The notes beneath the pieces are model-generated. The model saw only the letters and a program-made list of their open reading frames with translations, did no database searches and had not been told where the DNA came from. A DNA stretch of 64,000 nucleotides, taken from Leptospira biflexa. GTDB taxonomy: Bacteria; Spirochaetota; UBA4802; UB4802. The DNA lies in assembly GCA_020721905.1 (NCBI GenBank), contig DYLU01000001.1, forward strand, positions 32,439-96,438, given 5' to 3'. The position numbers were made by a program, and so were the translations under genes. Of this stretch, positions 1,131 to 51,170 are shown piece by piece (position 1 is the stretch's first letter; each line of letters opens with the position of its first letter).

Positions 1131-1148
1131 ATATTTTTTATCGTACGT

Positions 1149-7011: not shown

Positions 7012-7024
7012 GTAACTATCGCCC
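7012..7024 (-). repeat. Copy of the GGGCGATAGTTAC motif (reverse orientation) in the WYL/ilvB intergenic region
   Basis: See the motif finding. Confidence 0.7.
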
Positions 7025-17625: not shown

Positions 17626-20041
17626 AATTATTTAACACACCTTTTGTTTTATGGACTATTTCATGAACATCATACATCTTTTGCCAAACCTCGCAGGCTC
17701 CCATACGCATTAATTGCTCTTTCATTGTATCATCATAATAGCCGCTCATCATTACAACTGGTATATCAGGATGATTATTTTTCATGTAATTCAGGACATC
17801 TTCACCGGTAACTACCGGCATTCGCACATCGCTTATAACCAGTTTTACAGTATCAGTATGGGAATCAATATATGCAAATGCTTCGTTGGGATTGGTAAAT
17901 GTCATTGCTTGCAAGTCACCTAATTTCAAGGATTCCTGATATAATGAGCAAATATTATCATCATCGTCAATAATAATTATAGTGCCACTGGTTGCCTGCA
18001 GTGCCTGGTTGTTTTTTTCTTCAGTTAGTTTTTGCAAAGACTTTACAGGCAAATAAATATAAAAGCTTGTACCAGAACCCGGTGTTGAAATGACATCAAT
18101 AAAACCTTTATGCCGCTTAACAATAGCATACACTATAGCCAATCCCAACCCGCTTCCCTTTTCTTTTGTAGTATATAGAGGCTCAAAAATATGTTCAAGG
18201 TGTTCAGGGGCAATTCCTGTTCCTGTATCGCTTATCTTCAGGAATATATAATCACCAGCAGGTATAGTTTCTACTAAACCCGCTTTTTCATGTGCCACTG
18301 TGGTATTTTCAGTCTGTATGGTAATGGTGCCACCTTGAGGCATGGCTTCAGCAGCATTAATCATAAGATTCATGATTACCTGCTGCATTTCAGTGGCATC
18401 ACCGGATATAATATCATTAAACGCATGTAATAACTGGACAACCTCACAATTTTTTGATAAAGCAGTATGCAGTAACGAAACAGTATTGGGGATCATAATA
18501 TGCAGATGTATATCACTGGCATGGAATGCCTTTTTATGTGAAAACGTCAGAAGTTTTGCCACAAGATCTTTGGCATGATTGCCAGCCTGGATAATTTTCT
18601 CAATGGCAGGTTTTTTCTTATCTTCAATGGATGTTTCGACAAGATGGGCATACCCTAATATCACGGTAAGGATATTATTGAAATCATGCGCTATGCCTCC
18701 TGCTATCTTTCCAATAATTTCTAATTTTTGTGATTGTAACAACTCCCCTTTTAACTGTTCCTGTTTTACAAGCAAATGAGTAAGCTCCGTGGTATCGCTC
18801 ACCACACACTCAAATGCCTCCTGTCCCATCCATATTGCAGGCCGTATCCTGAACAACAAAGTCAGATTAACACCATCCTTTCTTTTCCACACTGCTTTGT
18901 GAATATGCTGGCCGTATAACAATTCCTTCATTGTATCAAACGATGAATACTGTGCTTTTGATTCCCCTTCAACAGAATAGTCATCAAAATAATCATCCAA
19001 TGTTTTTCCCATTATAGATTCTACCGAGGTGCCAGCAATGCGTGCGCCTTCATAATTTGTAAGGACAATTGCGTTTTTTTGCAGTATATATACTCCAACA
19101 TTCAAATCATTAATCAGATTTCTGAAATATGTTTCAAGTAATTGAAGTTTGTGTATTTTTTTTCTTCGCTCATATAGTTGAAATACAAGAAATGAAAAAA
19201 GTACTGTAATAACAACTGTTCCAATATACATTATCACACGTTTAGAAACATCAGGCGGGGGCATAACGGCAAACCATTTCCAGTACAGCATATCAATAAA
19301 ATTCTGAGATTTTAATTCATGGATACTATCACTTATAATTGTTACTAATTCTTTATTGTGAAATGAAACAGGAAATGCAATTTTTTTACGGTCATATACT
19401 ATATCACCCCATTTACCTTTTGCAATTTTAATACTGCCCAAAAAAAATTTATTAAGTAAATACACTGAATTGAGATAATCATTTAAAACAGCATCCAGCC
19501 TGCCATTCACAAGCGCATTAAATGATTCAACGGTATCCTGAAAGCGGACTATGGTAATATCATAATCCTTCGCCATCAGCCTGGCAGCATATTTATCACC
19601 GGAAGCATCTTTTTTAACACCTACGGTCATATTTGCAAGATCATAAATTGTGCGGACACTGCTTCCTGCAGGAAGCACCAGCACCAGGCCACCTTCCAGA
19701 TAGTTATCGGAAAAATTAAACCAGTGTTCCCGTTCCTCAGTAACATAGATACAGCCAATAGCCATATCAGCTTTCCCTTCCCTAACCTGTTGAAGCATAT
19801 CCTGGAATGAAGTTATGGTTATCGTGTAACTAATATTATTGAGTTTGCATATTTCGTTAAGAAGGTCAATATCAAAGCCGGTAAGTTTTCCATCCTTGTA
19901 CATTATAAAGGGCTCATAAATAGCAGTAACAACATGAATATGTTTTTGACGTTTGTTTTGGTGGGTATCAGCAAATAATGCACTACATACAACAAGTGCG
20001 ATAGTTACTGATAAAAAAATTTTTGCCATGAATTTACTCAT
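17597..20041 (-). CDS. Hybrid sensor histidine kinase (periplasmic solute-binding domain - TM - PAS - HisKA/HATPase - receiver)
   Basis: H-box IAHDFNNILTVI, ATPase G-boxes (ISDTGTGI, GSGLGLAIV) and a C-terminal receiver domain (IIIIDDDD...D). The N-terminal domain resembles an SBP_bac_3 binding protein. Overlaps polA by 29 nt. Confidence 0.8.
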   Translation of the reverse strand: MSKFMAKIFLSVTIALVVCSALFADTHQNKRQKHIHVVTAIYEPFIMYKDGKLTGFDIDLLNEICKLNNISYTITITSFQDMLQQVREGKADMAIGCIYVTEEREHWFNFSDNYLEGGLVLVLPAGSSVRTIYDLANMTVGVKKDASGDKYAARLMAKDYDITIVRFQDTVESFNALVNGRLDAVLNDYLNSVYLLNKFFLGSIKIAKGKWGDIVYDRKKIAFPVSFHNKELVTIISDSIHELKSQNFIDMLYWKWFAVMPPPDVSKRVIMYIGTVVITVLFSFLVFQLYERRKKIHKLQLLETYFRNLINDLNVGVYILQKNAIVLTNYEGARIAGTSVESIMGKTLDDYFDDYSVEGESKAQYSSFDTMKELLYGQHIHKAVWKRKDGVNLTLLFRIRPAIWMGQEAFECVVSDTTELTHLLVKQEQLKGELLQSQKLEIIGKIAGGIAHDFNNILTVILGYAHLVETSIEDKKKPAIEKIIQAGNHAKDLVAKLLTFSHKKAFHASDIHLHIMIPNTVSLLHTALSKNCEVVQLLHAFNDIISGDATEMQQVIMNLMINAAEAMPQGGTITIQTENTTVAHEKAGLVETIPAGDYIFLKISDTGTGIAPEHLEHIFEPLYTTKEKGSGLGLAIVYAIVKRHKGFIDVISTPGSGTSFYIYLPVKSLQKLTEEKNNQALQATSGTIIIIDDDDNICSLYQESLKLGDLQAMTFTNPNEAFAYIDSHTDTVKLVISDVRMPVVTGEDVLNYMKNNHPDIPVVMMSGYYDDTMKEQLMRMGACEVWQKMYDVHEIVHKTKGVLNNYAGKNTIRS

Positions 20042-23245: not shown

Positions 23246-25213
23246 TTATTTGTTTTTTTTAGTTCCAAATAATTCTTCAATAGCCAATTCTTTTAGTTTA
23301 GTAGCAGTTGGGCCGCCAGTTTCAGGTTCCCATCCGGTTATAACATACAATTCATTGAGCAGTTCATTAATGGGAACTGTAACCCCTTTTAATGGGCCTT
23401 CCTGTAGTGGTGGCTTGCCCTGTGCACGATCAGGGATAATTGTGTTCTTAACATATAATCCTTCCCGTACATTGAAAGCTTTTCGCATAGCAAGGATACG
23501 CTCACCGGTAGTTAAATACTCATCGGCAGGCAAATCCCATCCAGTCACTGCGTTAATATAATCAACCAGTGGTATTGAACCACTTAAAAAACCAAACTGG
23601 CACATACCACAGCCGTTAAAAAGATTGGCAAAATACATTGATGCTGCTGTCAGTGTTAAGCGTTTTGCAAAGCTACTGTTTGCAGTTTTCAGCATTTTCT
23701 TAACCCTGGGAAATTGCTTTTTAGTCCTGTACAGATGATTGTATAAATTTGATGCAATGGTATGGCGCCCTGGTGTTGCTTCAGAAGAATATGTAACAGC
23801 AAACCCATCATCCAGCCGGCTATCATGCATGGGAAGCTCCTGACCGCCGGCATGAATGGCAAAGCTTTCAGAACCTTTGCCTATTTTTTTAGCAGCACGC
23901 ATAACTCCATCAGCCAGTATGTTGCCAATTCCTTTCCTGTTAATTATCATCTCTGTTAATGCAAGTATGTCTTTAGCTTTGCCCCAGCCTAACTCCAATC
24001 CGCCCGTATCTTTCTTTGTTAATATCCCATGCTCATAGCATTCAATAGCAAATGCAACAGCAGTACCAGTAGATATGGTGTCAATACCAGCCCTGTTGCA
24101 TAATTCATTTATTTCCATTATTGTATCTAAATCATCAAGTAAAAGCATACCGCCAAAAGAACCCAGAGTTTCATATTCCGGCTTGTGTCCTTCAGTGCCC
24201 TTATATCTTCCGGCTTTTATGTCAACAATGCCACCACATCCAAGCGGACATGACTGGCATGCATATCGCTTCTTTTGATGTGCTACCACGCTTTCATCTG
24301 AAATTTTTTGAACACCTGGAAAATCTGAATACCCAACACCAGCCCAGTTTTTGATTGGCATATCACCGGTAAACGCAGAATACACTGTTGTTCCGCTTGT
24401 ACCATACCGTTTAAATATTTCACGTACTGTAGAAGGCTGTGTTGGTACCGATACTCTTGTCCGTGCTATAATCTGGCTTAAAAAATTCATCATATTGACT
24501 GTGGCTTTATCGATGGGACTGGTTGACTTAAAACCTGATAAAAATTTTTTATTAATTTCCTTTAAAACATCAGGTTTTGCAACCGGTATTTTCTTTGTTC
24601 CTTTTATGGCAATTGCCTTTAACTTCTTGCTTCCCATGACCGCGCCCAATCCACTGCGTGCAGCAATTCTTCCGTCATCGGTTACAATACCTGATATGAG
24701 CGATAGTTTCTCTGCAGCAGGCCCTATGCAGGCAACCTGATACTTATCATCTTTAAGTTCTTTTTTTATGAGTTCTTCTGTTTCAATAGCATCCTTCCCC
24801 CACAACTTTCTTGCATTTTTTATCTGTATTTTACCATCATCGATGACTATATATACCGGCGTTTTTGCCTTGCCGGTAACAAATAGTGCATCAAATCCGG
24901 CGCGCTTGATTTCTATGGAAAAGAACCCTCCGCAGTTACTATCGCCCCATCCTCCGGTTAATGGCGATTTACCAACCACCATAAACCTCCCGGCAAAATA
25001 CGCACCGGTACCGGTTAAAAGACCTGAACAAAATCCAAGTACGCTTTCAGGCGATAATGGATTGACTTTTGGCTTCTGCAATTGTGCAATAATGGCAGCA
25101 CCAAGGCCATAGCCTGCTAAATACTTTTTGTAAAAATCATCAGAAAGTTTTTTAATAGTGGATTTACCAGTAGACAAATTTATTATGACATATTGACCCA
25201 TATAACCGCCCAT
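23246..25213 (-). CDS. Aldehyde:ferredoxin oxidoreductase (tungsten-containing AOR family)
   Basis: AFOR_N-type N-terminus (VIINLSTGK...GGWGDSNCGGFF), 4Fe-4S ligand motif CQSCPLGC (CxxCxxxC), and the pterin-binding motif GIDTISTG. Confidence 0.85.
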   Translation of the reverse strand: MGGYMGQYVIINLSTGKSTIKKLSDDFYKKYLAGYGLGAAIIAQLQKPKVNPLSPESVLGFCSGLLTGTGAYFAGRFMVVGKSPLTGGWGDSNCGGFFSIEIKRAGFDALFVTGKAKTPVYIVIDDGKIQIKNARKLWGKDAIETEELIKKELKDDKYQVACIGPAAEKLSLISGIVTDDGRIAARSGLGAVMGSKKLKAIAIKGTKKIPVAKPDVLKEINKKFLSGFKSTSPIDKATVNMMNFLSQIIARTRVSVPTQPSTVREIFKRYGTSGTTVYSAFTGDMPIKNWAGVGYSDFPGVQKISDESVVAHQKKRYACQSCPLGCGGIVDIKAGRYKGTEGHKPEYETLGSFGGMLLLDDLDTIMEINELCNRAGIDTISTGTAVAFAIECYEHGILTKKDTGGLELGWGKAKDILALTEMIINRKGIGNILADGVMRAAKKIGKGSESFAIHAGGQELPMHDSRLDDGFAVTYSSEATPGRHTIASNLYNHLYRTKKQFPRVKKMLKTANSSFAKRLTLTAASMYFANLFNGCGMCQFGFLSGSIPLVDYINAVTGWDLPADEYLTTGERILAMRKAFNVREGLYVKNTIIPDRAQGKPPLQEGPLKGVTVPINELLNELYVITGWEPETGGPTATKLKELAIEELFGTKKNK

Positions 25214-27546: not shown

Positions 27547-28023
27547 CTATGCTATTGCTTTAGCATTTTCATTTTCTATTTTGTCAATAAGTTTAAGATA
27601 ATATTCGTTGGTAAAAAACTTGTACATGCTAATCCTTGAATCTTCAAATGCGTGCAATATTTTTTTATACTGACTCTCCTGGTTTTCATCACCAATACAT
27701 ATACCGTGCCTTTTACCATATCCGCACTTTACACATATAGGATTTTTCAGAGCTTTATAGCATCCATTATGTTCATATCCGTAATAATGGCAAAATGGAC
27801 ACAATTCGTAACGCAAACCCGAACAATTCAACTTGAAAATATTGTGTTTAATCTTTTCCCATACTTTTGCTGCTTCTTCATTGGTCCAGGATTTGATTTC
27901 TTGCTCGTCGCCCTCATTAAAATACCAGTTACCTGGTACATTTAACTCTTTTTCCATACGATTAGCTTTAGACTTCATGAAATCAACAATTGCTTGCTGG
28001 AAATTGAGTGATTTTTGTTTCAT
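27547..28023 (-). CDS. Cys-rich hypothetical protein (putative zinc-binding; CPFCH...GC...CVKCG...GIC)
   Basis: 158 aa with a cluster of 8 Cys and several His in a ~45-aa core. No recognised family. Confidence 0.45.
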   Translation of the reverse strand: MKQKSLNFQQAIVDFMKSKANRMEKELNVPGNWYFNEGDEQEIKSWTNEEAAKVWEKIKHNIFKLNCSGLRYELCPFCHYYGYEHNGCYKALKNPICVKCGYGKRHGICIGDENQESQYKKILHAFEDSRISMYKFFTNEYYLKLIDKIENENAKAIA

Positions 28024-28223: not shown

Positions 28224-28679
28224 TCAGAGCCTTGCTATTGTTTCTTCATTCTCTGTTATAATTAATTCAATAATATAGTCAATACTTTTTTGTACTGATA
28301 CACTCAACACATCCCCCACAGCCACATTCTCAGGTTGAATCCCTATAAAAGTGATATTTGCTGTAATCTCTTTCAATTTCTGCAAGAGTATTCCAAACGG
28401 CATACTATGCGTTGCAACAATACCCGAGTGGATTTTAGAAATATCTATAATCCTTACCTCTCCGGGGGATAGCGCCACATCACAAGCATCAACAATGATA
28501 AGCTTCTGCACATCTTTTCGCTTAATTACCCCAATGAAATTCTCTGGCATAAACTCAGCGTCAATGCTGCAAACCCCCATGTTGGATAATCTTTGAGCAA
28601 TGACACTTCCCGCCATATCATCACTGCGCAAATGATTACCAATACCAAGGACCAATCTTTTGCACTGTTTATTTTTCAT
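28224..28679 (-). CDS. Hydrogenase maturation protease (HycI/HyaD/HybD family)
   Basis: Family signature LVLGIGNHLRSDDMAGSVIA (GxGNxxxxDDGxG). 151 aa. Confidence 0.7.
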   Translation of the reverse strand: MKNKQCKRLVLGIGNHLRSDDMAGSVIAQRLSNMGVCSIDAEFMPENFIGVIKRKDVQKLIIVDACDVALSPGEVRIIDISKIHSGIVATHSMPFGILLQKLKEITANITFIGIQPENVAVGDVLSVSVQKSIDYIIELIITENEETIARL

Positions 28680-28681
28680 CA

Positions 28682-28761
28682 GTAACTATCGCCTAAACTT
28701 TTTTAATATTTTACTTGCATTAAAAAGCTTTGCAAGTTTTATTTTTGCAAGCGATAGTTAC
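28682..28761. promoter_or_regulatory. Nested palindromes in a divergent promoter: GTAACTATCGC...(CTTGCA-N11-TGCAAG)...GCGATAGTTAC
   Basis: An inverted pair of the window-wide over-represented motif sits 57 bp apart and brackets a second inverted repeat. One copy directly abuts the ATG of the hydrogenase-protease gene. Confidence 0.5.
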
Positions 28762-28776
28762 TAAAGGATTATTTCA

Positions 28777-29976
28777 ATGATTACAAAAGGCTTAATTGAA
28801 AAAATTTTTCAGGCAGCAAGCATACAGCGGTGGAATGACCACGTGCGCCCAACAGAACTTACTGAGATTGACAAACAGTCGCATAAGATGATTATTGCCT
28901 ATACCATTGCCAGGTTTCAGGAAGAAGAAAAACCCGGTAGTATAAACTGGCAATTGTTAATTGAAGGCGGTATTATTGAACTGTTACATAGAGTGATAGT
29001 TACTGACATCAAACCCCCGGTGTTTCACAAAATAATGAAAGAAAAGGGCAAAGAACTTAATGAATGGGTATTCAATCAACTGGAAGCTGATATTGCGCCC
29101 ATTAAAGGTAACTTTTTGCACACATGTAAAAAATATTTATTTGACGATACCTTTGCTGCTTTTGAAAAAAAGATTTTACAGGCTTCACACTACCTGGCTA
29201 CAAACTGGGAATTTCAGATTATCTACCATTCCAACAAATTCATCTATGGGATTGAACACACAAAAGCCGAAATAGAAAACCAGATTGAGTATCATATTGA
29301 CCTTACCGGCGTGCAAAAAATTCTACTGCATCGCAGTATTTCAGGATTTATAAATCTTTGCGGCCAATTGCGATTTCAGCAGCGATGGGCGCAAACACCC
29401 CGTATCCCAAAAACATCAGTTCTGGGACACATGTTCATTGTTGCAATACTATCGTATTTTTGCTCAAAAGAACTTGGCGCATGCAACAAGCGTGTGTATA
29501 ATAATTTCTTTGCATCATTATTCCATGATCTGCCTGAAGTGCTTACCCGTGATATTGTTTCGCCCATCAAGCGCTCAATACAGGGATTGGATGAACTTAT
29601 TAAGCAGTATGAAATCAGCGAAACAAACAATCGTATCTTCCCGCTAATTCCACAAAACTGGCATGACGAAATACGCTACTATATATTTGATGAATTTGAA
29701 AACAAAATCTGGAAAAACAACTCCATTATAAAAGGACTATTGCCTGAGGACATCAACACAAACTACAATCATGACATGTATAATCCCCTGGATGGAACAA
29801 TGTTAAAAGCCTGCGACGACTTTGCTGCATTTTTAGAAGCGTCCTTTTCAATAAATTACGGGGTAAAACCCAAAGCCCTGGAATTTGCAAAACGCAATAT
29901 TTACAATAAGTATAAACGCAATAATCCTAAACTTGGTGATATGGAATTTATTATACTATTTGATTATTTTAATTGA
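28777..29976 (+). CDS. Tandem HD-domain protein (YfbR-like 5'-deoxynucleotidase fold x2; the N-terminal copy is degenerate with HD replaced by HR)
   Basis: The C-terminal half has H(MFIVA)...LFHDLPEVLTRDIVSPIK, matching YfbR MYHDASEVLTGDLPTPVK. The N-terminal half has the same spacing but LLHRVIVTDIKPPV. Confidence 0.55.
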   Translation: MITKGLIEKIFQAASIQRWNDHVRPTELTEIDKQSHKMIIAYTIARFQEEEKPGSINWQLLIEGGIIELLHRVIVTDIKPPVFHKIMKEKGKELNEWVFNQLEADIAPIKGNFLHTCKKYLFDDTFAAFEKKILQASHYLATNWEFQIIYHSNKFIYGIEHTKAEIENQIEYHIDLTGVQKILLHRSISGFINLCGQLRFQQRWAQTPRIPKTSVLGHMFIVAILSYFCSKELGACNKRVYNNFFASLFHDLPEVLTRDIVSPIKRSIQGLDELIKQYEISETNNRIFPLIPQNWHDEIRYYIFDEFENKIWKNNSIIKGLLPEDINTNYNHDMYNPLDGTMLKACDDFAAFLEASFSINYGVKPKALEFAKRNIYNKYKRNNPKLGDMEFIILFDYFN

Positions 29977-30010
29977 TATTGTCCCTGATGTAAGGGATTT
30001 GTAAACAATA

Positions 30011-30406
30011 ATGAAAACAACGATAAAAAATATATTTTTTGATTTACGAGATACTATTGGTGCTTTTTTTGTTGCACTAAAGTCACCTGATGTTTCGTTG
30101 CTATCCAAAATTTTAATTGTAATAGCTATTGCTTATGCACTATCGCCAATAGACCTTATACCTGACTTTATCCCATTTGCCGGCTACATTGATGATGCCA
30201 TTATTGTGCCTTTTTTAGTTTTCATAGCCATTAAAAGTATACCAAAACCTATATATGAAGAATGTAAACAAAAAGCAAGTTTAAGCTTCAAAAAGGGCAT
30301 AGGTTTTATTGCATTGGGTATACTTATGGTACTTTTACTCTGGGGAATAGTTGGTTTTGCACTATATGCATTATTCTCATTTGCCCTGCGTCTATTGCGG
30401 TTATGA
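30011..30406 (+). CDS. DUF1232 (YkvA-like) membrane protein
   Basis: Signature YALSPIDLIPDFIPFAGYIDDAIIVP. Confidence 0.7.
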   Translation: MKTTIKNIFFDLRDTIGAFFVALKSPDVSLLSKILIVIAIAYALSPIDLIPDFIPFAGYIDDAIIVPFLVFIAIKSIPKPIYEECKQKASLSFKKGIGFIALGILMVLLLWGIVGFALYALFSFALRLLRL

Positions 30407-31119
30407 TTGCCATTATAAATCCACAAACACCACAACCCATTATTGACGGCCTTATTAACCACAACTTTACACCTGTTTCTATTCCGCTTTGCCCTGATGT
30501 TGAACAACCAATAGCTGGCCATCCTGAAATACAACTATGTATTATTGGCAGTACAATCATATATCAGCCCCGGATTAACAGCTCATTTTTAGAGATTTTA
30601 ACGCATTCACACTATACACTGGTAAGGGGTCAGAGCCTTTTACAAAAACAATATCCTTATGACTGTGCTTATAATATAGCCTATACCGGAAACATAGCAT
30701 TCCATAACACAAAAGCTACCGATAGCTCTGTAAAAGAAGCTGTTTATCAAGTGCATAAAGGCTCTGACCCCTTTATTCATGTACATCAAGGCTACACCAG
30801 ATGTTCTACCTGCATTGTTGACTCACATGCCATTATTACCGCGGATAGGTCCATTCACAATGCTGCCATAAAAAATTCTATTGATTCACTGCTCATACAG
30901 CCGGGATATATTGAACTTCCCGGCTACCGATACGGTTTTATTGGCGGCGCAAGTGGCACATGCTCTGACACCGTTTACTTCACGGGACGTTTACAGCACC
31001 ACCCTGATTACAGCAATATTGTGAATTTTATTGAAAACCACAACAAAAACATTGCCTTTTTATCAGATCTCCCTGCAATTGATATTGGCTCAATCTTTTT
31101 TATTGACATGATGATATGA
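30403..31119 (+). CDS. Hypothetical protein (238 aa), no recognised domain
   Basis: Start overlaps the upstream gene's stop (ATGA). Conserved-looking stretches are GYTRCSTC and GFIGGASGTC. Resemblance to the pentein GGG(x)HC motif is weak and unverified. Confidence 0.4.
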   Translation: MIAIINPQTPQPIIDGLINHNFTPVSIPLCPDVEQPIAGHPEIQLCIIGSTIIYQPRINSSFLEILTHSHYTLVRGQSLLQKQYPYDCAYNIAYTGNIAFHNTKATDSSVKEAVYQVHKGSDPFIHVHQGYTRCSTCIVDSHAIITADRSIHNAAIKNSIDSLLIQPGYIELPGYRYGFIGGASGTCSDTVYFTGRLQHHPDYSNIVNFIENHNKNIAFLSDLPAIDIGSIFFIDMMI

Positions 31120-31178
31120 CCTGTTATCCCTGTAGCATATACATTAAATGAAATCATATACCACTATGGATACTTTTC

Positions 31179-31724
31179 ATGAATATTCCTGACATAACAA
31201 CATGTTTAGCGCTATTGCAAAAGCATGACATCCTGCCCAATGTGCTGGAACATTCATTGCAGGTACATAAGGTTGCCTGTGCCATCGTTGATCATCTCAA
31301 CGGCAGTGTTACAATCAACCGTGATTTAGTATGTGTTGCAGCACTGCTTCATGACATCACCAAATCCCGTTCCTTAAAAACAGGTGAAAAGCACGACATT
31401 TCCGGCAAAGAACTTTTAGAATCTTTAGGATATCCGGAAATAGCCGATATCGTAGGACAGCATGTCTTTTTACGCGATACTTCAGCCGATTCACCTCTCA
31501 ATGAAGCAGATATAGTGTATTATGCCGATAAACGCGTTATGCATAATGAGATTGTAACAGTTGACCGCCGCATTGAAGACCTGCTCATACGCTATGGCAC
31601 CACACCGGAACGCTGTAACAAAATTCTTGAAAACAAAGACATTATTATAATCATTGAAAAAAAATTAACCAGACACCTTATAAAACCTCTGGAAGATATT
31701 ATTGCATCATTACGGCATGAATAA
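31179..31724 (+). CDS. HD/HDIG-domain phosphohydrolase (YqeK-like)
   Basis: LEHSLQVHKVA...AALLHDITK...YYADK pattern is typical of HDIG/YqeK. 181 aa. Confidence 0.65.
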   Translation: MNIPDITTCLALLQKHDILPNVLEHSLQVHKVACAIVDHLNGSVTINRDLVCVAALLHDITKSRSLKTGEKHDISGKELLESLGYPEIADIVGQHVFLRDTSADSPLNEADIVYYADKRVMHNEIVTVDRRIEDLLIRYGTTPERCNKILENKDIIIIIEKKLTRHLIKPLEDIIASLRHE

Positions 31725-33366
31725 ACAATACTGCATTCTTGATTGTTACGTGGACGAACCCGCGTGTTTTGGTGTACCGCCGTTTGTTTCGCCCTACCCG
31801 CGCTATGTGTATGGTGCACTTCTTGATGCCGGCATATACGATGATGAAATTGTGTATCTTACCATTGATGTTCTTCGCAAAGCCGAATACAGGCTACCGC
31901 ATAGTTTTCATTATGTTTTTTTAATTGGGGGGGCGATAGTTCCTGGTAAATACCTTGGCTTTAAAATAGGAACTGTCCCTGAAATAACAAAAATCATTGC
32001 AACAAACAAACGCCAAAATTTTGCCATTGGCGGTATGATAGCTCACTTAGTTAAGGATTTTACCAATACAACACTGGTAACTGGTGATATTGAACAGTTT
32101 GCATTTGATGTTGCACGCGGCAACAAGCCTTTACCGGATAACTATCGCACATATAAAAATCTTTCCCGATGGGCTGTAGCAGGAAGTCACATGGTAAAAC
32201 TTCATCCACAATTCCCCAACCTTATCTGTGAGATAGAAACTTACCGAGGATGCCCACGCCGCAATCACTGCTCATTTTGTGCTGAAGGATTAATGCAATC
32301 TGTTGATTTCAGAGATGAAGAAGATATCTTACATGAAATAGATGCCCTTATTGCTCAAGGGATTTTTAGATTCAGGATAGGAAGGCAGGCTGATATTATT
32401 GCTTATAAATCACATCTGCAAGATTTTGTTCACGGGTTCCCGCGGCCAGATCCTGCTATAGTCATTAATCTTTTTACTGAATTGCAAAGGCGAATAAATG
32501 AAGGGCATATCAGTATGCTCAATATTGACAATGCAAATCCCGGTACCATCTTTTACTTTCCTCACGAATCACAGGCCATTATTGATTGCATTGCTCATAC
32601 GGTAACACCGGGCGATACTATGCCGCTGGGCGTTGAATCATTTGATCCGGCAGTCATTCCAAAAAACAATCTTAAATTGCACAAAGATCAGGTTATACAG
32701 GTTGTACAATTAATAAACGATGCCGGTGGCACAACAATTAATGGTATCCACAGGCTTTTACCTGGTATCAATCTCATTCATGGGCTTATTGGTGAAACTT
32801 CTGACACATTTAAAATCAACTATGAATCGCTGGCGGAAATCCTTGACAGAGGACTGCTTTTGAAAAGGATCAATATACGCAGTTTGTTCCCCTTCCCGGG
32901 AACTATCGCCGCACAAAAACAAACACACAATACAATGATTGAAAACCGTTACCGTTTTTACCGTGAAAAAATACGAAGCGACATTGACCATACCATGATT
33001 GCCAAACTATTCCCCATAGGTACTGTCATGTATCATATGCAGGTACTGTCATGTATGCATGGATATTCGTACGCAAAAGAGATTAGAAGCTACGCCATAA
33101 CAGCAAAAATTCCTGTAAGCTTACCGCTTTTTAGTTTTGTTGACTGCATTGTTGTTGGTCATCAGGAACGTTCGCTTCTGTGCCTTCCATATCCAATACG
33201 CATTAACACACTGCCGCAAAAAGCTTTAGAAGGCATACCGGGCATTGGGAAGAAAGGCGCATCAGCAATCATTGTGCATCGCCCCTTTGCAGGCATGGAT
33301 GATGTCAGGCCGTATCTGGAACACATTCCGGAAAATATTGTACAGGCAATTGCGGAAGGATTTTAA
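31702..33366 (+). CDS. Radical SAM-like protein with a non-canonical Cx5Cx2C cluster motif and a C-terminal helix-hairpin-helix
   Basis: YRGCPRRNHCSFCAEG (C-x5-C-x2-C) at ~aa 185. The N-terminus has a CILDCYVDEPAC Cys triad. The C-terminus has LEGIPGIGKKGASAII (HhH GIG motif). Overlaps the upstream HDIG gene by 23 nt. Confidence 0.55.
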   Translation: MHHYGMNKQYCILDCYVDEPACFGVPPFVSPYPRYVYGALLDAGIYDDEIVYLTIDVLRKAEYRLPHSFHYVFLIGGAIVPGKYLGFKIGTVPEITKIIATNKRQNFAIGGMIAHLVKDFTNTTLVTGDIEQFAFDVARGNKPLPDNYRTYKNLSRWAVAGSHMVKLHPQFPNLICEIETYRGCPRRNHCSFCAEGLMQSVDFRDEEDILHEIDALIAQGIFRFRIGRQADIIAYKSHLQDFVHGFPRPDPAIVINLFTELQRRINEGHISMLNIDNANPGTIFYFPHESQAIIDCIAHTVTPGDTMPLGVESFDPAVIPKNNLKLHKDQVIQVVQLINDAGGTTINGIHRLLPGINLIHGLIGETSDTFKINYESLAEILDRGLLLKRINIRSLFPFPGTIAAQKQTHNTMIENRYRFYREKIRSDIDHTMIAKLFPIGTVMYHMQVLSCMHGYSYAKEIRSYAITAKIPVSLPLFSFVDCIVVGHQERSLLCLPYPIRINTLPQKALEGIPGIGKKGASAIIVHRPFAGMDDVRPYLEHIPENIVQAIAEGF

Positions 33367-33686
33367 TAACGTTTGCGTTCCTTGTCGTGGTTGAGTTTGT
33401 TCATGACATACACTGCTGCATATCCGCCTATAAACGCGGCAATAATGTTGACACCGGTATCATACACCAAAAATCGCAGTATTTTTATTGTTATATCAAG
33501 CAACAGCTTATCAAGAATGAATCCGCCTATCAGTGCACCAATAACACCTATAACCATACCGCCTATAAATCCGCCAAATAAATCCCTGCGTTTTAAATTA
33601 TAAAATATCCACGACACCAGCGCACCCATGGCTATATAAATAGCAATGGCAAGTAGTTTCATCAAAAAGCTAATAAATGCATCCAT
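33363..33686 (-). CDS. GlsB/YeaQ/YmgE-family small membrane protein
   Basis: Gly-rich TM segments GGFIGGMVIGVIGALIGGFIL characteristic of the family. Confidence 0.7.
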   Translation of the reverse strand: MDAFISFLMKLLAIAIYIAMGALVSWIFYNLKRRDLFGGFIGGMVIGVIGALIGGFILDKLLLDITIKILRFLVYDTGVNIIAAFIGGYAAVYVMNKLNHDKERKRY

Positions 33687-33692
33687 GGCTGC

Positions 33693-34310
33693 TTACTCCT
33701 CCTCAATAAAAAAGATTTCACCTTTGCCTTTGCGGACAATCTGTATGTCGCCACCAGAAAAGTCAACAACAGTTGATGGATCACTCACCTTTGGCCCGCA
33801 ACTTAATATCATGTCAACCGCATTCCGGTATTCTTTGTCTAAATCAACCGGATCAATTACATAATCCCCTTCTTTGGTGCTGACACTTGCTGTCATTATT
33901 GGATGGCCCAATGCCTGTACAAGTTCAAGCGCAATGGTATTATCAGGAATCCTGACACCTATTGTCTTTTGATTGGTTATGGCAATCTTTGGCACCAACT
34001 TAGATGCCTGGAAAATAAACGTATAGGGACCCGGAAAAGCTTTTTTCATAATTTTAAAAGCCTGATCTGAAACATTGCGTACATACTGTGAAATTGCCGA
34101 AATGTCCGAAAATATAAAACTGAGTGGTTTATTTCTGGGAATTCGTTTTATATGATACAACCGTTCAATTGCCCGTCTATCATTGATATCGCACCCATAC
34201 GCATACACAGTATCAGTAGGGAAAATGATAATACCCCCTTCTTCAAGAATCTCTTTGGCTTTCTTGATAAATCGCTTTTGTGGATTGATTTCATTAATTA
34301 ATACTATCAT
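33693..34310 (-). CDS. tsaC: L-threonylcarbamoyladenylate synthase (YrdC/Sua5 family)
   Basis: IIFPTDTVYAYGCD matches the YrdC PTDTVYGLG motif. 205 aa. Confidence 0.8.
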   Translation of the reverse strand: MIVLINEINPQKRFIKKAKEILEEGGIIIFPTDTVYAYGCDINDRRAIERLYHIKRIPRNKPLSFIFSDISAISQYVRNVSDQAFKIMKKAFPGPYTFIFQASKLVPKIAITNQKTIGVRIPDNTIALELVQALGHPIMTASVSTKEGDYVIDPVDLDKEYRNAVDMILSCGPKVSDPSTVVDFSGGDIQIVRKGKGEIFFIEEE

Positions 34311-42315: not shown

Positions 42316-43332
42316 ATGCCCAAAACACATGTAACAATACCATTCTTTATACCACATTCTGGTTGCAGGCACCGATGTGTGTTCTGCAACCAGATATACA
42401 CCAGCAATACACGATCTCTTCCTGATGAAGAATATATGGTTAAAAAAATTGAACAATACTTGCAAACCATAAAAACTGGTGTAACACACATTGAAATTGC
42501 TTTTTTTGGCGGAAGCTTTACCGGCCTTGATGAAGAAATTCAAAAAAATTATCTGGCTATAGCTCATTCTTATCACTCTTTGCATAAAATTGACGGCATA
42601 CGCTTATCAACTCGTCCTGACTATATAACCCATAGAACGCTTTCATTGCTCAGGGAATATCACGTTACAACGGTTGAATTAGGTGCTCAATCGATGCACG
42701 CTGATGTACTCCAACAATCACAACGGGGTCATACAGTACAGGATATAATAGATGCTTCAAAGCTCATTAAAGAATATGGTTTTAATCTTGTAATTCAGCT
42801 TATGCCAGGCCTCCCCTCCGATTCATTTGAAAAATCAATTGAAACAGCATATAAAACAGTATTATTACAGCCTGATGGCGTACGTATCTATCCAACTGTT
42901 GTCATTAAAGATACCCAATTAGAAACATTATACAAAGAAGGAAAATATATGCCTTTATTATTGGATGAAGCTATTGAATTATGTGCTCACATATACAGCC
43001 TGTTTACCACAAACAATATTCCGGTGATCAGAATGGGTTTACATCCATTTGATGATGCTGTAGCTGACACCATCATTGCCGGACCATATCATCCATCATT
43101 TGGCTACTTAGTAAAATCACGATACTTTCGCAATACTTTAGAAGATAGGATTAAAACCTTTTTACAAAACAACAGCACACAAACGTTAGCCATAGAATTG
43201 CCGCAACACAATATTGCAGAATATTATGGCCCGCATAAAGAAAATATTGCTTTTTTACGTATCGTGTTTAATACTGTTACATTGCAATTTCATTCTGCTG
43301 ATACACAAGAACCGGTACTATTGAAAGCATAA
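42316..43332 (+). CDS. Radical SAM protein (Elp3/YhcC-like small radical SAM)
   Basis: HSGCRHRCVFCNQ (Cx3Cx2C) near the N-terminus. 338 aa. Begins 9 nt after the cstA stop. Confidence 0.65.
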   Translation: MPKTHVTIPFFIPHSGCRHRCVFCNQIYTSNTRSLPDEEYMVKKIEQYLQTIKTGVTHIEIAFFGGSFTGLDEEIQKNYLAIAHSYHSLHKIDGIRLSTRPDYITHRTLSLLREYHVTTVELGAQSMHADVLQQSQRGHTVQDIIDASKLIKEYGFNLVIQLMPGLPSDSFEKSIETAYKTVLLQPDGVRIYPTVVIKDTQLETLYKEGKYMPLLLDEAIELCAHIYSLFTTNNIPVIRMGLHPFDDAVADTIIAGPYHPSFGYLVKSRYFRNTLEDRIKTFLQNNSTQTLAIELPQHNIAEYYGPHKENIAFLRIVFNTVTLQFHSADTQEPVLLKA

Positions 43333-43374: not shown

Positions 43375-45249
43375 ATGCAACATCATCAGAAAGTATTCTT
43401 CATAGACCTTTCCACCGGTTACTATCGCCTGGCACGATACCCTATTGGTGATTTTTTTGGGCCTGTTGATCTGGGCCTTCACATTGCACAGCGCTACTAT
43501 ACCACCAATATCGGCGTTGGAATGTTAGCTGGTTCAATCTTCCCTGGCTCAAACCGCCTTTTTATCAATGGATATTCACCCTGCTGGAACAGCTTCTTTA
43601 TTTCATCTATGGGTGGTGCAGGCTTAGTGTTTGATAACTTAGGTATAAACATGATTGCTCTTTCCAAAAAAGCCCTAACACCTTCGGTGCTGTATCTTAA
43701 CCGTATTCATGGCGAAGAAATTGAAATTGAAATAAAACCCATTGATATATTCAGGATATGGGAAAGCGGACATGGTGGTGTGTATTCCCTGATGCATGAA
43801 GTTTTAACCATGTTTGCCGGTAAATATTTAACTGATCCGCGCGTATTAGCCACTGGTCCTGCTTCATATGCAACCGATTTTGGCGCACTGTGTTCAGCAT
43901 CTGTGAAAGACGGCACGCTCACCTGGGTTGATACATGGGCCGGGCGTGGCGGATTTGGATCAAAGCTTTTCCGTGAACATGGTATTGCCGCTATTATTTA
44001 CGGCGGTACATATATCGATGAAGACTTCAGAGACCGTAAAGTTGCCGACGAATGGTTTATTGATAAATACAGCAAAAAGCTGGCAGCCAAAGACTTAGAA
44101 GCAACAACTAAGTATCGCTTTGACCCGCAGTTTAATACCGGTGGTACATTTGGCGTTAATTTTGCTACTATTGGCGGGAAGCTGCTTGCATTTAACTATC
44201 GCTCAATTTATATGACCGAAGAAGAAAGACTTGCCATTCATCAAAAGCTTGTTGTTGATCATTACCTGAAACAATTTAATGAAGAAACTATCTCCACCAA
44301 AAGCATGAAAACCTGCGGTGAGCCCTGTACTGCCGTTTGCAAAAAGATGCGCGATATTTACAAAAAAGATTACGAGCCGTATCAGGCAATGGGACCTCTA
44401 TGCGGTATTTTTGATCAAAGATCAGCTGAGATGCTGATCCACAAAGCCGATATGTATGGGTTTGATGCCATTTCAGTTGGTGGTGTGCTGTCGTGGCTTA
44501 TGGAATGCCTTGATAAAAAATTAATAAAACCTGAAGAAGCCGGTGTAACTCATCTTCCTGTTTTTTCGCATGTTAACTTCAGTGCCCAAACTGATTCAAA
44601 ACACAACGCTGAAATTGGAAGCCAGCTTTTAGATACAATCATTCATAAAAAAGGAATCCTTGATTTCACCGAGGGGGCACGCAAATTTGCCCGCAAATTA
44701 GCTCGAGAAAAAAGCAAGGATATAATTGATTGCTTTGTGTATAACGCCAACGCACGTAAAGGCTGGATTGTTCCCAACCAGTACTGGGTTCCAGGGGTAC
44801 TATCGCCCATGCCTATTATGGGTAAGTATTACATGTACTACGGGTATGATTTTTTACCGCCACGTGAGTTAGGCCGCAAAAACGCACATCGTATGATCAA
44901 GGAGCTTATGCTTGACAACACCGGTTTTTGCCGTTTTCACAGGCTGTGGGCTGAAGACATGATCCCTGAAATCATCAATTCACTGTATGGTATGCATAAA
45001 GAATTTTTAACAAATCTTAACATGACCGCAAGCAGAATTAACAGCCGCAACGTATCAATTTACTGGGAATCGACTCGAAACATTGATTTTATTAAAATGT
45101 ATTTAAAGCGACAGCATGATGTTGAAAACGTCAATGATAAAGAATTACTGCACTGGATCATGCAATTTGAACAAAACCCGCACGAAGCTGCATACAACTA
45201 CTGGTTTGAAATTTTAAAAGGTGTGCATGAATCATTACGTGAATTTTAA
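43375..45249 (+). CDS. Divergent aldehyde:ferredoxin oxidoreductase-family protein (non-canonical Cys spacing)
   Basis: The AFOR_N-like N-terminus (KVFFIDLSTGYYR...GMLAGSIFPGSNRLFINGYSP) and DxxG motif region (DMYGFDAISVGG) resemble AOR. The cluster motif is CGEPCTAVC (Cx3Cx3C), not the canonical CxxCxxxC. Confidence 0.55.
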   Translation: MQHHQKVFFIDLSTGYYRLARYPIGDFFGPVDLGLHIAQRYYTTNIGVGMLAGSIFPGSNRLFINGYSPCWNSFFISSMGGAGLVFDNLGINMIALSKKALTPSVLYLNRIHGEEIEIEIKPIDIFRIWESGHGGVYSLMHEVLTMFAGKYLTDPRVLATGPASYATDFGALCSASVKDGTLTWVDTWAGRGGFGSKLFREHGIAAIIYGGTYIDEDFRDRKVADEWFIDKYSKKLAAKDLEATTKYRFDPQFNTGGTFGVNFATIGGKLLAFNYRSIYMTEEERLAIHQKLVVDHYLKQFNEETISTKSMKTCGEPCTAVCKKMRDIYKKDYEPYQAMGPLCGIFDQRSAEMLIHKADMYGFDAISVGGVLSWLMECLDKKLIKPEEAGVTHLPVFSHVNFSAQTDSKHNAEIGSQLLDTIIHKKGILDFTEGARKFARKLAREKSKDIIDCFVYNANARKGWIVPNQYWVPGVLSPMPIMGKYYMYYGYDFLPPRELGRKNAHRMIKELMLDNTGFCRFHRLWAEDMIPEIINSLYGMHKEFLTNLNMTASRINSRNVSIYWESTRNIDFIKMYLKRQHDVENVNDKELLHWIMQFEQNPHEAAYNYWFEILKGVHESLREF

Positions 45250-45264
45250 GGGGCGATAGTTACC
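45250..45264 (+). repeat. Copy of the over-represented GGGGCGATAGTTACC motif, ending at the hslO start codon
   Basis: See the motif finding; one of ~23 strong copies in the window. Confidence 0.7.
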
Positions 45265-47573: not shown

Positions 47574-48139
47574 TATGCTTTGATCTCCTCAATTATAATG
47601 TTGCTGTTTGAATAAATGCAGATTTCTGATGCAATTATCAATGATTGCTTTACAATGTCAAACGCATTCAACGTAGTATTACGTATAAGTGCCCGTGCTG
47701 CTGCCAGCGCATAGGTTCCACCCGAACCAATACCAATGATGCCGTCATCAGGCTCAATAATTTCACCATTACCGCTGATCAAATAAAGATATTGCTGGTT
47801 ACCAACAATCAGTACTGCTTCCAGCCTGCGCAAAGCCCTGTCCAAACGCCAGTCGCGTGCAAGCTCCACCACACTTCTTGGAATATTGCCGGAATACGAT
47901 TCTAACTTTTGTTCAAGCCTTTCAAACAGTGTCAGTGCATCAGCCACCGAACCCGCAAAACCAGTAAGTATTTTATCATCATACACCTTGCGAATTTTCA
48001 CTGCTTTGCTTTTAATCACCGTATCACCTAACGTGACCTGTCCGTCACAACCCATGGCAATAGTATTGTCTTTTTTAATTGCCAGTACTGTAGTGCCACG
48101 CATTGAAGTATTATTCATCATCATGTCTCCTGTGTGCAT
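47573..48139 (-). CDS. hslV: ATP-dependent protease subunit HslV
   Basis: [12 protein letters not shown]-terminal Thr-protease signature. The real start is probably the internal Met preceding TTVLA. Confidence 0.85.
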
Positions 48140-49019
48140 GGGGATGATATTTATGATATAATTCTTTTAAACGTTCTATTGTGGTGTGAGTATATTTCTG
48201 TGTTGTAGAAATACTCGCATGCCCCAACATATCCTGCACAGCCCTGATATCAGCACCTCTGTTGAGCAATTCGGTTGCAAAGCTGTGTCGCAACACATGC
48301 GGAGTAACCGATTTCCATAATTGTGCCATGTTTGCTCTTTTATCAATAATATAAAAAATACCCCGTGTTGTCAATCGTTTGCCATTATTATTTACAAATA
48401 AGGGATTGGTTAAACAATTGAATTTTTTTTTGCGTTCATTCATATATTCCTGCAATGCCGTGACAGCAGTATCATTCAAAAACACAATTCTTTCTTTTGA
48501 CCCTTTGCCCAGCACCTTTAACCTTCCGGTTTTATAATCACAATCATCAATGTCAGCATATGTTATTTCCGAAACGCGAGCCCCTGTGGAATAGAACACT
48601 TCCAGCAGTGCTTTGTCGCGATAGTCACCAAAACTTTTGCATTCAAATGCAACCAGTGCCTGAATCTGTTCAAAGGTTAAAAAAACCGGCAAACAATTCT
48701 TTTGTTTAGAGTAATGGATGTCGCGGGCAGGATTACCGTTTCTATAGTTATGAAATTCCAGATACTTAAAAAAAGATTTTAACGTTGCAACCTTTCGTTC
48801 AATTGTTGAAAGTTCATTTCCTTTTTCAAAGCAGTAATCAATAAAATCACGTATATCATTTGCTGTTATAGCAGCGATAGTAACTGATTCAGGGTCAACT
48901 GCTTCATATAAAAATTCCATGAATTGATTCAGGTCTTTGCTATATGATTCAACAGTCAGAGGTGAGGCATTTTTCTCAGCAATAAGGTACTGCATGAATT
49001 TATCAATATAGTGATCCAT
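48111..49019 (-). CDS. xerC: Tyrosine recombinase XerC/XerD (CodV-like)
   Basis: Catalytic R...HxxR...Y motifs (TPHVLRHSFATELLNRGADIRAVQDMLGHASISTTQKYTH). Position upstream of hslVU mirrors the Bacillus codV-clpQ-clpY arrangement. Confidence 0.8.
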   Translation of the reverse strand: MDHYIDKFMQYLIAEKNASPLTVESYSKDLNQFMEFLYEAVDPESVTIAAITANDIRDFIDYCFEKGNELSTIERKVATLKSFFKYLEFHNYRNGNPARDIHYSKQKNCLPVFLTFEQIQALVAFECKSFGDYRDKALLEVFYSTGARVSEITYADIDDCDYKTGRLKVLGKGSKERIVFLNDTAVTALQEYMNERKKKFNCLTNPLFVNNNGKRLTTRGIFYIIDKRANMAQLWKSVTPHVLRHSFATELLNRGADIRAVQDMLGHASISTTQKYTHTTIERLKELYHKYHPHAHRRHDDE

Positions 49020-51127: not shown

Positions 51128-51157
51128 AATTACTTCCTTACGTTCTAATTTTTTAAG

Positions 51158-51170
51158 CGATAGTTACTGA
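51158..51170 (+). repeat. Copy of the GCGATAGTTACTG motif in the topA 5' untranslated region
   Basis: See the motif finding. Confidence 0.7.

Follow-up and report, generated by a model that had tools for sequence, protein, structure and literature searches.

A conserved two-gene module of an HDIG phosphohydrolase and a predicted radical-SAM enzyme with a helix-hairpin-helix, embedded in a five-gene string of a spirochaete

The closest described relatives of the protein that is the subject of this analysis are the methylthiotransferases (MiaB, RimO, MtaB/e-MtaB), radical S-adenosylmethionine (SAM) enzymes with a flavodoxin-like N-terminal domain (N-domain) that carries three cysteines for an auxiliary [4Fe-4S] cluster, a radical-SAM core and a TRAM barrel. 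A second point of comparison is the OxsA/OxsB pair of oxetanocin-A biosynthesis, in which the gene for an HD hydrolase is paired with that of a radical-SAM enzyme, the four-domain cobalamin enzyme OxsB that lacks TRAM and helix-hairpin-helix (HhH) domains. The protein in question is encoded by the last of five plus-strand genes, here denoted g1 to g5, in a low-GC (~37%) chromosomal segment of 64 kb (contig DYLU01000001.1, positions 32,439 to 96,438; hereafter the window), the proteins of which best match Spirochaetota metagenome-assembled genomes. The product of g5 belongs to a catalogued but uncharacterized family and adds a new architectural variant to the radical-SAM enzymes; its coupling to g4, which encodes an HDIG phosphohydrolase, is a clade-specific addition. 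In the preliminary description, g1-g5 were taken for an operon of unknown function that serves one pathway. This observation is largely real yet over-interpreted: the five genes form a string that is peculiar to this lineage and is made up of three units unrelated to one another (g1; g2-g3; g4-g5), that is, a conserved two-gene module, g4-g5, which is the sole conserved unit of the locus, together with passengers.

Homologues of g5 with 52-84% identity over 98-99% of the length, as well as remoter family members (32-39% identity), bear the JGI name 'radical SAM superfamily enzyme with C-terminal helix-hairpin-helix motif', which we take to be the name of COG1031; the NCBI label for family members is just 'radical SAM protein', and no model in NCBIfam is dedicated to this family. 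Among 45 diverse members, the only invariant cysteines are C179, C185 and C188 (residues are numbered from the ATG at 31717). The spacing between the first two of these is Cx3, Cx4, Cx5, Cx6, Cx7 or Cx8, so that the Cx5Cx2C motif noticed at the outset is present in g5 but lies in a variable loop and is not a fixed trait of the family. The invariant residues of the core are G178, the three cysteines, R220, D271-N272, G305-x-E307, P349-G350 and G356-L357; the equivalents of the SAM-binding motifs, FRxGxQ (R220, G222), G305-x-E307-S and G356-L357-x-G359-E360-T, are conserved and align with the motifs of methylthiotransferases. The radical-SAM identity of g5 is thus borne out by the cluster cysteines, by the G-x-Q, G-x-E-S and G-L-x-G-E-T motifs and by a structural model with a radical-SAM core, and since the SAM motifs are conserved, the initial concern that g5 might lack them falls away.

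The AlphaFold model of g5 (predicted local distance difference test score, pLDDT, 94.1; predicted template modeling score, pTM, 0.92) comprises the N-domain (residues 1-135), the core (170-400), a long helix, a five-stranded barrel (437-491) and the HhH (500-548). The core is a partial (beta/alpha)6 structure, the partial TIM barrel whose presence in g5 had been in question, and the model matches >25 solved radical-SAM enzymes at probability 1.00. No Pfam model matches the N-domain, which contains the invariant residues D13-E14-P15, V20, P22, R29, R54 and G77-Y79 and no conserved cysteine (residues 1-170). In the model, these invariant residues are predicted to lie at the C-terminal ends of strands 1-3 of the N-domain, presumably the topological positions that are occupied by the auxiliary-cluster cysteines in methylthiotransferase structures. 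The N-terminal cysteine triad of g5 (C6, C10, C17), to which attention had been drawn, is not conserved, with only C17 reaching about 50% (53%) in the family, and this conservation pattern rules it out as an auxiliary cluster.

At the other end of the protein, the GIG motif of the HhH holds up: the segment GIPGIGKKGA is helical in the model, and the HHH_3 match, which is weak in g5 (E 0.0034), strengthens to 2e-6 to 5e-6 in homologues; of ten homologues scanned, three (P0185, P0152, P0246) exceed the cut-off set by Pfam. There is no Pfam TRAM match in g5, the barrel being recognized from the model and by alignment. The median net charge across the family is +6 for residues 401-495 (helix and barrel), +2 for the HhH and ~-2 for the N-domain and for the core. 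The TRAM-like barrel, the HhH and the basic C-terminal part make a nucleic-acid substrate of g5 plausible, as had been suggested.

In structure comparison with Foldseek, RimO and MiaB occupy the top ranks (E 8e-18 to 6e-17, template modeling (TM) score 0.67-0.70), followed by a second tier of cobalamin-dependent enzymes, MgmA, TsrM, CysS, TokK and OxsB (E 3e-15 to 1e-9), and in profile-profile comparison with hhalign, the core and TRAM part align with methylthiotransferases at 94.9% and 87% probability. With the methylthiotransferases, g5 shares the order of the three domains and the G-x-Q, G-x-E/Q-S and G-x-P-G-E-T motifs. Unlike these enzymes, it lacks the three N-domain cysteines of the auxiliary cluster and a match to the Pfam domain UPF0004, possesses the extra C-terminal HhH and belongs to a family with a cluster loop that varies from Cx3 to Cx8 whereas theirs is fixed at Cx3; furthermore, the window encodes a separate, canonical methylthiotransferase (56810-58120). 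Against the methylthiotransferase equivalog TIGR01578, g5 scores 23.3 bits (cut-off 314.7). Without the auxiliary-cluster cysteines, g5 therefore cannot methylthiolate, and its assignment to the methylthiotransferases was rejected for want of the defining auxiliary-cluster domain.

The likeness to class-B cobalamin radical-SAM methylases, which have neither TRAM barrel nor HhH, is seen also in the alignment of residues 62-400 of full-length g5 with the B12-binding domain and core of the class-B enzyme encoded in the window itself (78.6%), where residues 62-165 align weakly with the B12-binding region. There is, however, no match of g5 to PF02310, the B12-binding domain, even at E up to 10, and with the NCBIfam class-B models, which have cut-offs of 360-400 bits, g5 scores 15-22 bits. 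For lack of a matching B12-binding profile, g5 is not demonstrably a class-B enzyme. An HmdB-like or YgiQ (UPF0313)-like affiliation, which had been raised as well, found no support from HmdB or YgiQ-specific N-terminal profiles in Pfam and NCBIfam at E up to 0.01, and the Cx5 spacing is not constant in the g5 family. A literature search found no functional study for COG1031, DUF6873, DVU_1551 or combinations of radical-SAM and HhH domains.

The partner protein, g4, matches TIGR00277 (46 bits, cut-off 27.6) and PF01966 (48.5 bits, cut-off 22), as well as the C-terminal HD part of NF045665 (E 7e-32). Its residues H25, H58-D59, H72, H95 and D117 are invariant across 25 orthologues and, we assume, represent the ligand set of two-metal HD sites. 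The same H-HD-H-H-D ligand pattern is found in the HD domain of the DVU_1551-family nucleoside triphosphate (NTP) transferases and in other small HDIG proteins; g4 differs in having no NTP-transferase domain (110.8 bits, cut-off 315), and its translational coupling to a radical-SAM gene is peculiar to this spirochaete clade. Stand-alone and MobB-fused relatives of g4 are common. Among the fusions are those to MobB (molybdopterin-guanine dinucleotide synthesis protein B) and to an EamA transporter (L173, 3063-4136; L098, 1-1341), and NCBIfam includes models in which the HD type of g4 forms the C-terminus of the MobA-like 'DVU_1551 family NTP transferase' or is fused to aTrm56.

The g4 and g5 genes overlap by 8 nt, ATGAATAA, when g5 is read from the ATG at 31717. 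This start is preferred because the homologues are 549 aa long and align from that ATG; the overlap of 23 nt reported previously obtains only with the alternative TTG start at 31702. The conservation of this arrangement was assessed in 84 loci that contain the radical-SAM gene (29 from spirochaetes, 55 from archaea and other bacteria), 80 loci around g4 relatives and targeted metagenomic look-ups; 80 genomic loci around relatives of g5 were collected for this purpose. In all 28 spirochaete loci with available upstream sequence (49-70% identity), the HDIG gene is located directly upstream of the radical-SAM gene and abuts or overlaps its start; the same order is found in six metagenome loci. 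Every other neighbor of the pair varies, and none of them, tsaC among them, is kept in as many as half of the spirochaete loci.

Taken together, these observations incline us, by a modest margin of confidence, to the view that g5 is a radical-SAM enzyme that modifies nucleic acid, probably RNA, and is coupled in this clade to an HDIG phosphoesterase, with the five genes of the locus falling into three independent units. The single [4Fe-4S] cluster, which sequence and fold place on C179, C185 and C188, would cleave SAM to the 5'-deoxyadenosyl radical. The auxiliary-cluster cysteines of the methylthiotransferases appear to be replaced in g5 by the invariant acidic/basic motif, and the HhH is appended, such that the enzyme would perform a different radical modification of nucleic acid, most likely of RNA or tRNA. 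Holding the substrate would be the role of the HhH together with the basic TRAM-like barrel, while the N-domain would bind a cofactor or substrate rather than an Fe-S cluster. The translationally coupled HDIG protein, with its predicted two-metal site, may hydrolyze a phosphoester on the same substrate, on the product or on a nucleotide co-substrate.

Several points weigh against this scenario. The characterized homologues do not fix the substrate of g5: RimO, one of the two closest folds, has a TRAM domain that acts on protein. The match of g5 to PF04055, at 28.1 bits, falls just below the cut-off of 29.5, the family homologues scoring 34-43 bits. With respect to the partner, none of the 55 loci from Brevinematales, methanogens, anaerobic methanotrophic archaea (ANME), Desulfurobacteriaceae, Thermotogota and Clostridia has an HDIG neighbor next to the radical-SAM gene, and for 74 of the 80 HDIG relatives from metagenomes, the gene is not followed by one for a radical-SAM protein. 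The HDIG subfamily is thus not exclusive to this radical-SAM family, an idea that was rejected, and given that the pairing is clade-restricted and most relatives are unpaired, the HD step cannot be essential to the core chemistry of g5. The adjacency of g1, g4 and g5 recurs in two remoter loci (L006 and L096), and a functional tie to g1 is accordingly still conceivable. Finally, a gene of the SAM_HAT type (DUF62, SAM hydroxide adenosyltransferase) lies immediately upstream of the HDIG and radical-SAM genes in four spirochaete loci (L001, L010, L012 and L016); the three genes possibly form a SAM-related unit, and this could indicate SAM or nucleoside metabolism rather than RNA.

The SAM_HAT gene counts in favor of the possibility that g4-g5 act on free nucleotides or nucleosides or on SAM-derived metabolites in the manner of OxsA/OxsB, the radical-SAM enzyme modifying or rearranging the molecule and the HD protein trimming phosphates. 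The pairing of an HD with a radical-SAM protein has a precedent in this system, OxsB is among the fold matches of g5, OxsA is the best solved-structure match of g1, and the fusions of HDIG relatives involve the MobA-like and MobB nucleotide-handling proteins. The resemblance has limits: OxsA is similar to g1 rather than to the conserved partner g4, g5 is less similar to OxsB than to MiaB and RimO, and no B12-binding Pfam domain is found on its N-domain. Moreover, the locus is chromosomal and housekeeping-like, with no natural-product cluster; the family is broadly conserved and of a housekeeping type in archaea, where there is no HD neighbor and no natural-product context; and the TRAM-like barrel and HhH with their conserved positive charge suit a polymeric substrate. 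Altogether, action on small molecules appears unlikely, if the least so among the alternatives.

Marginally more doubtful is the original proposal that all five genes form one dedicated pathway of nucleotide or nucleic-acid modification or signaling, in which each gene contributes a step along with g5. The genes are co-directional and tightly spaced: 34 nt separate g1 from g2, g2 and g3 overlap by 4 nt, and 59 nt separate g3 from g4. A consensus scan, in which promoter-like and terminator-like sites were not enriched compared with shuffles, placed no terminator-like site in the gaps, and judging from this layout, g1-g5 are probably co-transcribed. The packing of five plus-strand genes and the 4-nt overlap described at first are correct, and only the 23-nt overlap has to be replaced with that of 8 nt. 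The complete set is kept in relatives, but these are confined to those with at least 70% identity (70-87%), where the flanking genes, namely a cysteine-rich 158-aa gene, hycI, a 107-aa gene, tsaC, relA and maf, are equally conserved, so that the intact set reflects general synteny. The synteny of hycI is maintained in L085, L086, L095 and L096. In the last of these (55% identity), hycI, g1, g4, g5, the 107-aa gene and tsaC are all present and g2-g3 are missing from the otherwise syntenic locus, with g1 directly upstream of g4-g5; L006 has the same g1-g4-g5 arrangement. In about 25 further spirochaete loci, g4-g5 alone are retained, and neither there nor in any of the 55 non-spirochaete loci are g1, g2 or g3 found near g5.

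The remaining evidence in favor of a five-gene pathway is the presence of a DUF6873 gene, the family of g3, 1.3-7.5 kb from g5 in five of the 29 spirochaete loci, with one of these being a weak match (E 3e-4). Elsewhere, DUF6873 genes mostly occur in contexts that lack this radical-SAM gene and are unconnected with g4-g5; g2 adjoins g3 only in close relatives and is not near g5 in any of the 84 other loci; and the g1 family is likewise found mostly in genomes or contexts without the radical-SAM gene. Gene-neighborhood analysis thus shows no co-occurrence in other genomes for three of the five genes, which contradicts the notion of one pathway, and conservation of all five, across the 84 radical-SAM loci, the 80 HDIG loci and the look-ups, was rejected beyond close relatives. 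Membership in an anti-phage defense system was rejected as well: PADLOC detected nothing above noise for the five proteins, the single match being a 19-bit dGTPase hit for g4.

Two further explanations are each a step less probable than the previous ones. The first holds that g5 is a DNA repair or modification enzyme, similar to spore photoproduct lyase (SPL), and that the HD protein is a nuclease or phosphatase that acts on DNA. The HHH_3 motif of the ComEA type is typical of non-specific DNA binding, HD domains include nucleases, and another radical-SAM family with a C-terminal HHH_3, in which this motif follows the core as it does in g5, is annotated as DNA modification/repair (bioRxiv 10.64898/2026.08.19.745780). 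The members of that family, however, are ~400 aa long, contain Fer4_12 and the canonical Cx3Cx2C motif and lack both the N-domain and TRAM; g5 has no NCBIfam or Pfam match to the model of that family or to SPL, the fold and profile similarity, the TRAM part included, is to tRNA and protein methylthiotransferases, and the neighbors in other lineages are tRNA and RNA genes (tsaC, tsaD, queA, TRAM, LigT) rather than repair genes. The second, to which we assign the same low likelihood, is that the g4-g5 pairing is functionally meaningless, an overlap of unrelated housekeeping genes inherited within one clade; each family is indeed widespread without the other, and the 107-aa gene and tsaC are syntenic in many loci as well, but the abutting or overlapping adjacency survives in every sampled spirochaete locus down to 49% identity while the other neighbors are lost in more than half of these, as selection for co-expression would be expected to produce.

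Clustered at 50% identity, the family of g5 numbers 142 clusters with E values below 1e-30, and it is present in at least 578 species genomes, mostly of archaea. The carriers include Methanosarcinales, Methanomicrobiales, Methanocellales, haloarchaea, Thermoplasmatota, Asgard archaea, Thermotogota, Aquificota, Bacillota and Synergistota, and in a study from 2008, COG1031 is counted among the signature genes of archaea and is noted as shared with Thermotoga maritima (PMC2464742). Outside Spirochaetota, there is no universal neighbor, the neighbors differing by lineage: PBP1 in Brevinematales, IlvD or Thi4 in Methanosarcinales, TrkA and a Na/H exchanger in Desulfurobacteriaceae, and a spermidine-synthase-like gene and LigT in Clostridia. 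Three bacterial lineages have genes of the pathway for N6-threonylcarbamoyladenosine (t6A) in the vicinity of the COG1031 gene. The 107-aa gene and tsaC (33693-34310 on the minus strand of the window, convergent to g5) are found downstream in 12-13 of the 29 spirochaete loci, as well as in L085, L086 and L096; tsaD is 1.2 kb downstream in one Brevinematales locus (L031, 10839-11867) and two genes upstream in Mesotoga (L175/L176, 3726-4727), with queA nearby. A stand-alone TRAM gene adjoins the COG1031 gene in Halovivax (L177) and in another euryarchaeote (L076). The recurrence of RNA and phosphoesterase genes around the family (tsaC, tsaD, queA, TRAM, LigT, DHH-DHHA1) lends weak support to a link with RNA. 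No informative natural domain fusion of the radical-SAM protein was found, a single chimera with a histidine kinase probably being an artefact. In four Methanomicrobiales loci (L070, L074, L077 and L083; 7379-8011 in L070), an MptE-like (PF01973) gene overlaps the start of the COG1031 gene and is itself preceded by a gene for a TrkA_N-DHH-DHHA1 phosphoesterase, in a conserved three-gene arrangement.

These contexts invite a specific version of the RNA scenario, namely, that the COG1031 enzyme is the missing radical-SAM catalyst of a modification of the t6A family at position 37 of tRNA, for example, C-methylation of the threonyl side chain of t6A to yield N6-hydroxynorvalylcarbamoyladenosine (hn6A). 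The N-domain would then be the site of cobalamin or another cofactor, and the TRAM and HhH domains would hold the tRNA. The idea, for which all support is indirect, is testable thanks to the archaeal and Thermotoga distribution, the MtaB-like TRAM half, the likeness to cobalamin C-methylases and the nearby t6A genes in three bacterial lineages, and the absence of an auxiliary cluster from the g5 family agrees with it. The modification has been found in archaea and in T. maritima and T. commune (PMC6313347), as well as in Methanosarcina acetivorans (PMC10702137), and the genus Methanosarcina carries the COG1031 gene. The literature leaves the origin of hn6A unsettled (PMC6313347, PMC7430679, PMC10702137) and favors the incorporation of free hydroxynorvaline by TsaC/TsaD, the source of that amino acid itself being unknown (PMC7430679). 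Because of this preference, because haloarchaea carry the gene and because the HDIG partner would be left without an explanation, a role in hn6A synthesis is, in our estimate, the least probable of all the readings considered.

Table 1. Features of the g1-g5 locus and its immediate neighbors (window coordinates).
Feature	Coordinates	Strand	Basis
g1, HD phosphohydrolase, 399 aa	28777..29976	+	ORF list, PF13023
g2, DUF1232 small membrane protein, 131 aa	30011..30406	+	ORF list, PF06803
g3, DUF6873 ('GME fold') protein, 238 aa	30403..31119	+	ORF list, PF21778
g4, HDIG phosphohydrolase, 181 aa	31179..31724	+	ORF list, TIGR00277, PF01966
g5, radical-SAM enzyme, 549 aa	31717..33366 (TTG alternative start 31702)	+	homologue starts, family name
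g5, N-terminal flavodoxin-like domain, aa 1-165	31717..32211	+	model, residue conservation
g5, [4Fe-4S]/SAM cluster motif C179-PRRNH-C185-SF-C188	32251..32280	+	family conservation
g5, TRAM-like five-stranded beta-barrel, aa 437-491	33025..33189	+	model, alignment with methylthiotransferase TRAM
g5, C-terminal helix-hairpin-helix, aa 500-548, with GIPGIGKKGA	33214..33360	+	HHH_3, model
HycI-type hydrogenase maturation protease gene, divergent neighbor (context only)	28224..28679	-	TIGR00072, PF01750
107-aa membrane protein and TsaC/Sua5 (L-threonylcarbamoyladenylate synthase), convergent neighbors (context only)	33363..34310	-	TIGR00057 203 bits
hycI/g1 divergent intergenic region (97 nt), inverted repeat and core	28681..28762	.	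repeat scan, relatives

The first of the independent units, g1, is most likely a housekeeping (deoxy)nucleotide phosphohydrolase of the YfbR type with a degenerate N-terminal duplicate domain, the product of a widespread gene that would function on its own. It contains one HD_3/YfbR-like domain detectable with Pfam, which is intact (residues 195-368; PF13023, E 1.4e-33, 116.6 bits; PF12917, 63.7 bits) and scores 32 bits against the YfbR equivalog NF003009 (cut-off 122). With the YfbR-type 5'-deoxynucleotidases (HD_3; YfbR, HDDC2, DatZ, Lin2634), the C-terminal half shares the H...HD...E...D motif set and the fold (TM 0.66-0.70), and Foldseek matches OxsA, YfbR, DatZ and Lin2634 over one domain; unlike these enzymes, g1 is of double length, with the degenerate N-terminal repeat. 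The two halves align colinearly over 154 columns, including a common QRW...H motif, albeit weakly (hhalign E 0.17), and in the AlphaFold model (pLDDT 89.2), the pattern of a helix, a beta-bridge and the start of a long helix is repeated at residues 4-51 and 186-232; on these grounds, the N-terminal half is likely to be a degenerate duplicate without an HD dyad. Of the tandem HD organization attributed to g1, there remains one Pfam domain, with the second half represented by the weak alignment and the secondary-structure repeat. The 'HR' in that half, interpreted as a degenerated HD dyad, is not one: in the profile alignment, the dyad is opposite E68-L69, and H71 is not conserved.

The g1 family yields 6961 matches at 57-60% identity across Desulfobacterota, Nitrospirae and Alphaproteobacteria, and the relatives in other phyla are solitary or adjacent to tmk, dUTPase or thyX. 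In Desulforhabdus (L087/L088, 6001-9694), a g1-type double HD protein is encoded convergently to thymidylate kinase, dUTPase and ThyX genes, a context that fits a role of the g1 family, with ~58% identity kept across phyla, in the deoxynucleotide pool.

The second unit, g2-g3, would consist of a DUF1232 membrane protein and an enzyme-like DUF6873 protein that were inserted in this lineage. For g2, the match to PF06803 is 53.6 bits (cut-off 23), and the original assignments of the YfbR-like HD, DUF1232 and HD/HDIG proteins are all sustained by scores above the curated cut-offs. The 238-aa product of g3 is not the orphan it had been thought to be but matches PF21778 (E 4.2e-70, 236.1 bits, cut-off 27), and its relatives carry the NCBI name 'DUF6873 family GME fold protein'. 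Its invariant residues H40, Q129, C134, D148, H200 and D227 look enzyme-like.

Upstream of g1, the divergently transcribed gene is of the HycI type (TIGR00072, 90.7 bits, cut-off 47.45; PF01750 is matched as well). Its description as an orphan holds, since Pfam detects no hydrogenase subunit among the 39 window ORFs that were scanned, with 16 smaller ORFs (<=249 aa) left unscanned. The 97-nt intergenic region contains the palindromes noted previously, that is, TTGCAA palindromes and a perfect 12-nt inverted repeat, 28681-28692 AGTAACTATCGC and 28751-28762 GCGATAGTTACT. The arms enclose a core (28693-28750), AATATTTTACTTGCATT...CAAGTTTTATTTT, and core and both arms are conserved in L085 (4730-4830) and L086 (4700-4790) although the proteins of these loci are only 70-84% identical, which suggests a regulatory element shared by hycI and g1.

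Each arm of the repeat is one copy of a motif that recurs in the window more often than expected, with further copies at 7011-7022, 19998-20009, 45253-45264, 51157-51168 and ~20 more sites. Allowing up to two mismatches, GCGATAGTTACT occurs 32 times in the window, compared with 3.25 expected (shuffle maximum 11), and the motif core GCGATAGT is present in 27 copies in 64 kb. The intergenic copies read GCGATAGTTACTG, and some of these are located 0-14 nt before start codons (hycI, g1 and the Hsp33 gene). Within genes, the copies read gGGCGATAGTTCC[TC]; 18 of these 21 lie antisense to the gene, and all three frames are represented. The density is ~5 per 10 kb in the close relatives L085, L086 and L095 but only 0.14-0.36 per 10 kb everywhere else. 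The motif could be the site of a regulator or an uptake-like or repetitive extragenic palindromic (REP)-like sequence.

Among the other genes of the window, a 158-aa cysteine-rich protein (CPFCHYYGYEHNGCY...CVKCGYGKRHGIC) is encoded next to hycI (27547-28023, minus strand) and is conserved as well as syntenic in L085, L086 and L095; it has no significant match in Pfam, NCBIfam or PADLOC. The window is rich in radical enzymes (225-4136, 11910-13520, 42316-43332 and 56810-58120): there are a glycyl-radical enzyme and the corresponding activase, a radical-SAM enzyme of the B12-binding kind that includes DUF4070, an enzyme of the Radical_SAM_C type, the gene of which adjoins a divergent gene of the aldehyde:ferredoxin oxidoreductase (AFOR)-like type, and the canonical methylthiotransferase with UPF0004, radical-SAM and TRAM domains. 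Two genes belong to the AFOR family (23246-25213 and 43375-45249). A YhgA-like (Transposase_31) gene (9398-10486, minus strand) and a gene for an XerC/D-type tyrosine recombinase (48111-49019, minus strand) are present as well, neither adjoining g1-g5, and scans of the window for Rfam families and tRNAs returned nothing.

For annotation, the implication is that g1-g5 should not be read as one pathway. The broader interest lies with COG1031, a widespread, mostly archaeal radical-SAM family that has no assigned function and combines the architecture of methylthiotransferases, minus the auxiliary cluster, with an HhH. Given this loss of the cluster and gain of the HhH, the predicted chemistry is unlike that of any characterized relative. 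The coupled HDIG partner, specific to one spirochaete clade, offers a second biochemical handle, through co-purification and coupled assays, and since some carriers, Methanosarcina for instance, are genetically tractable, the function of COG1031 can be tested by nucleoside mass spectrometry.

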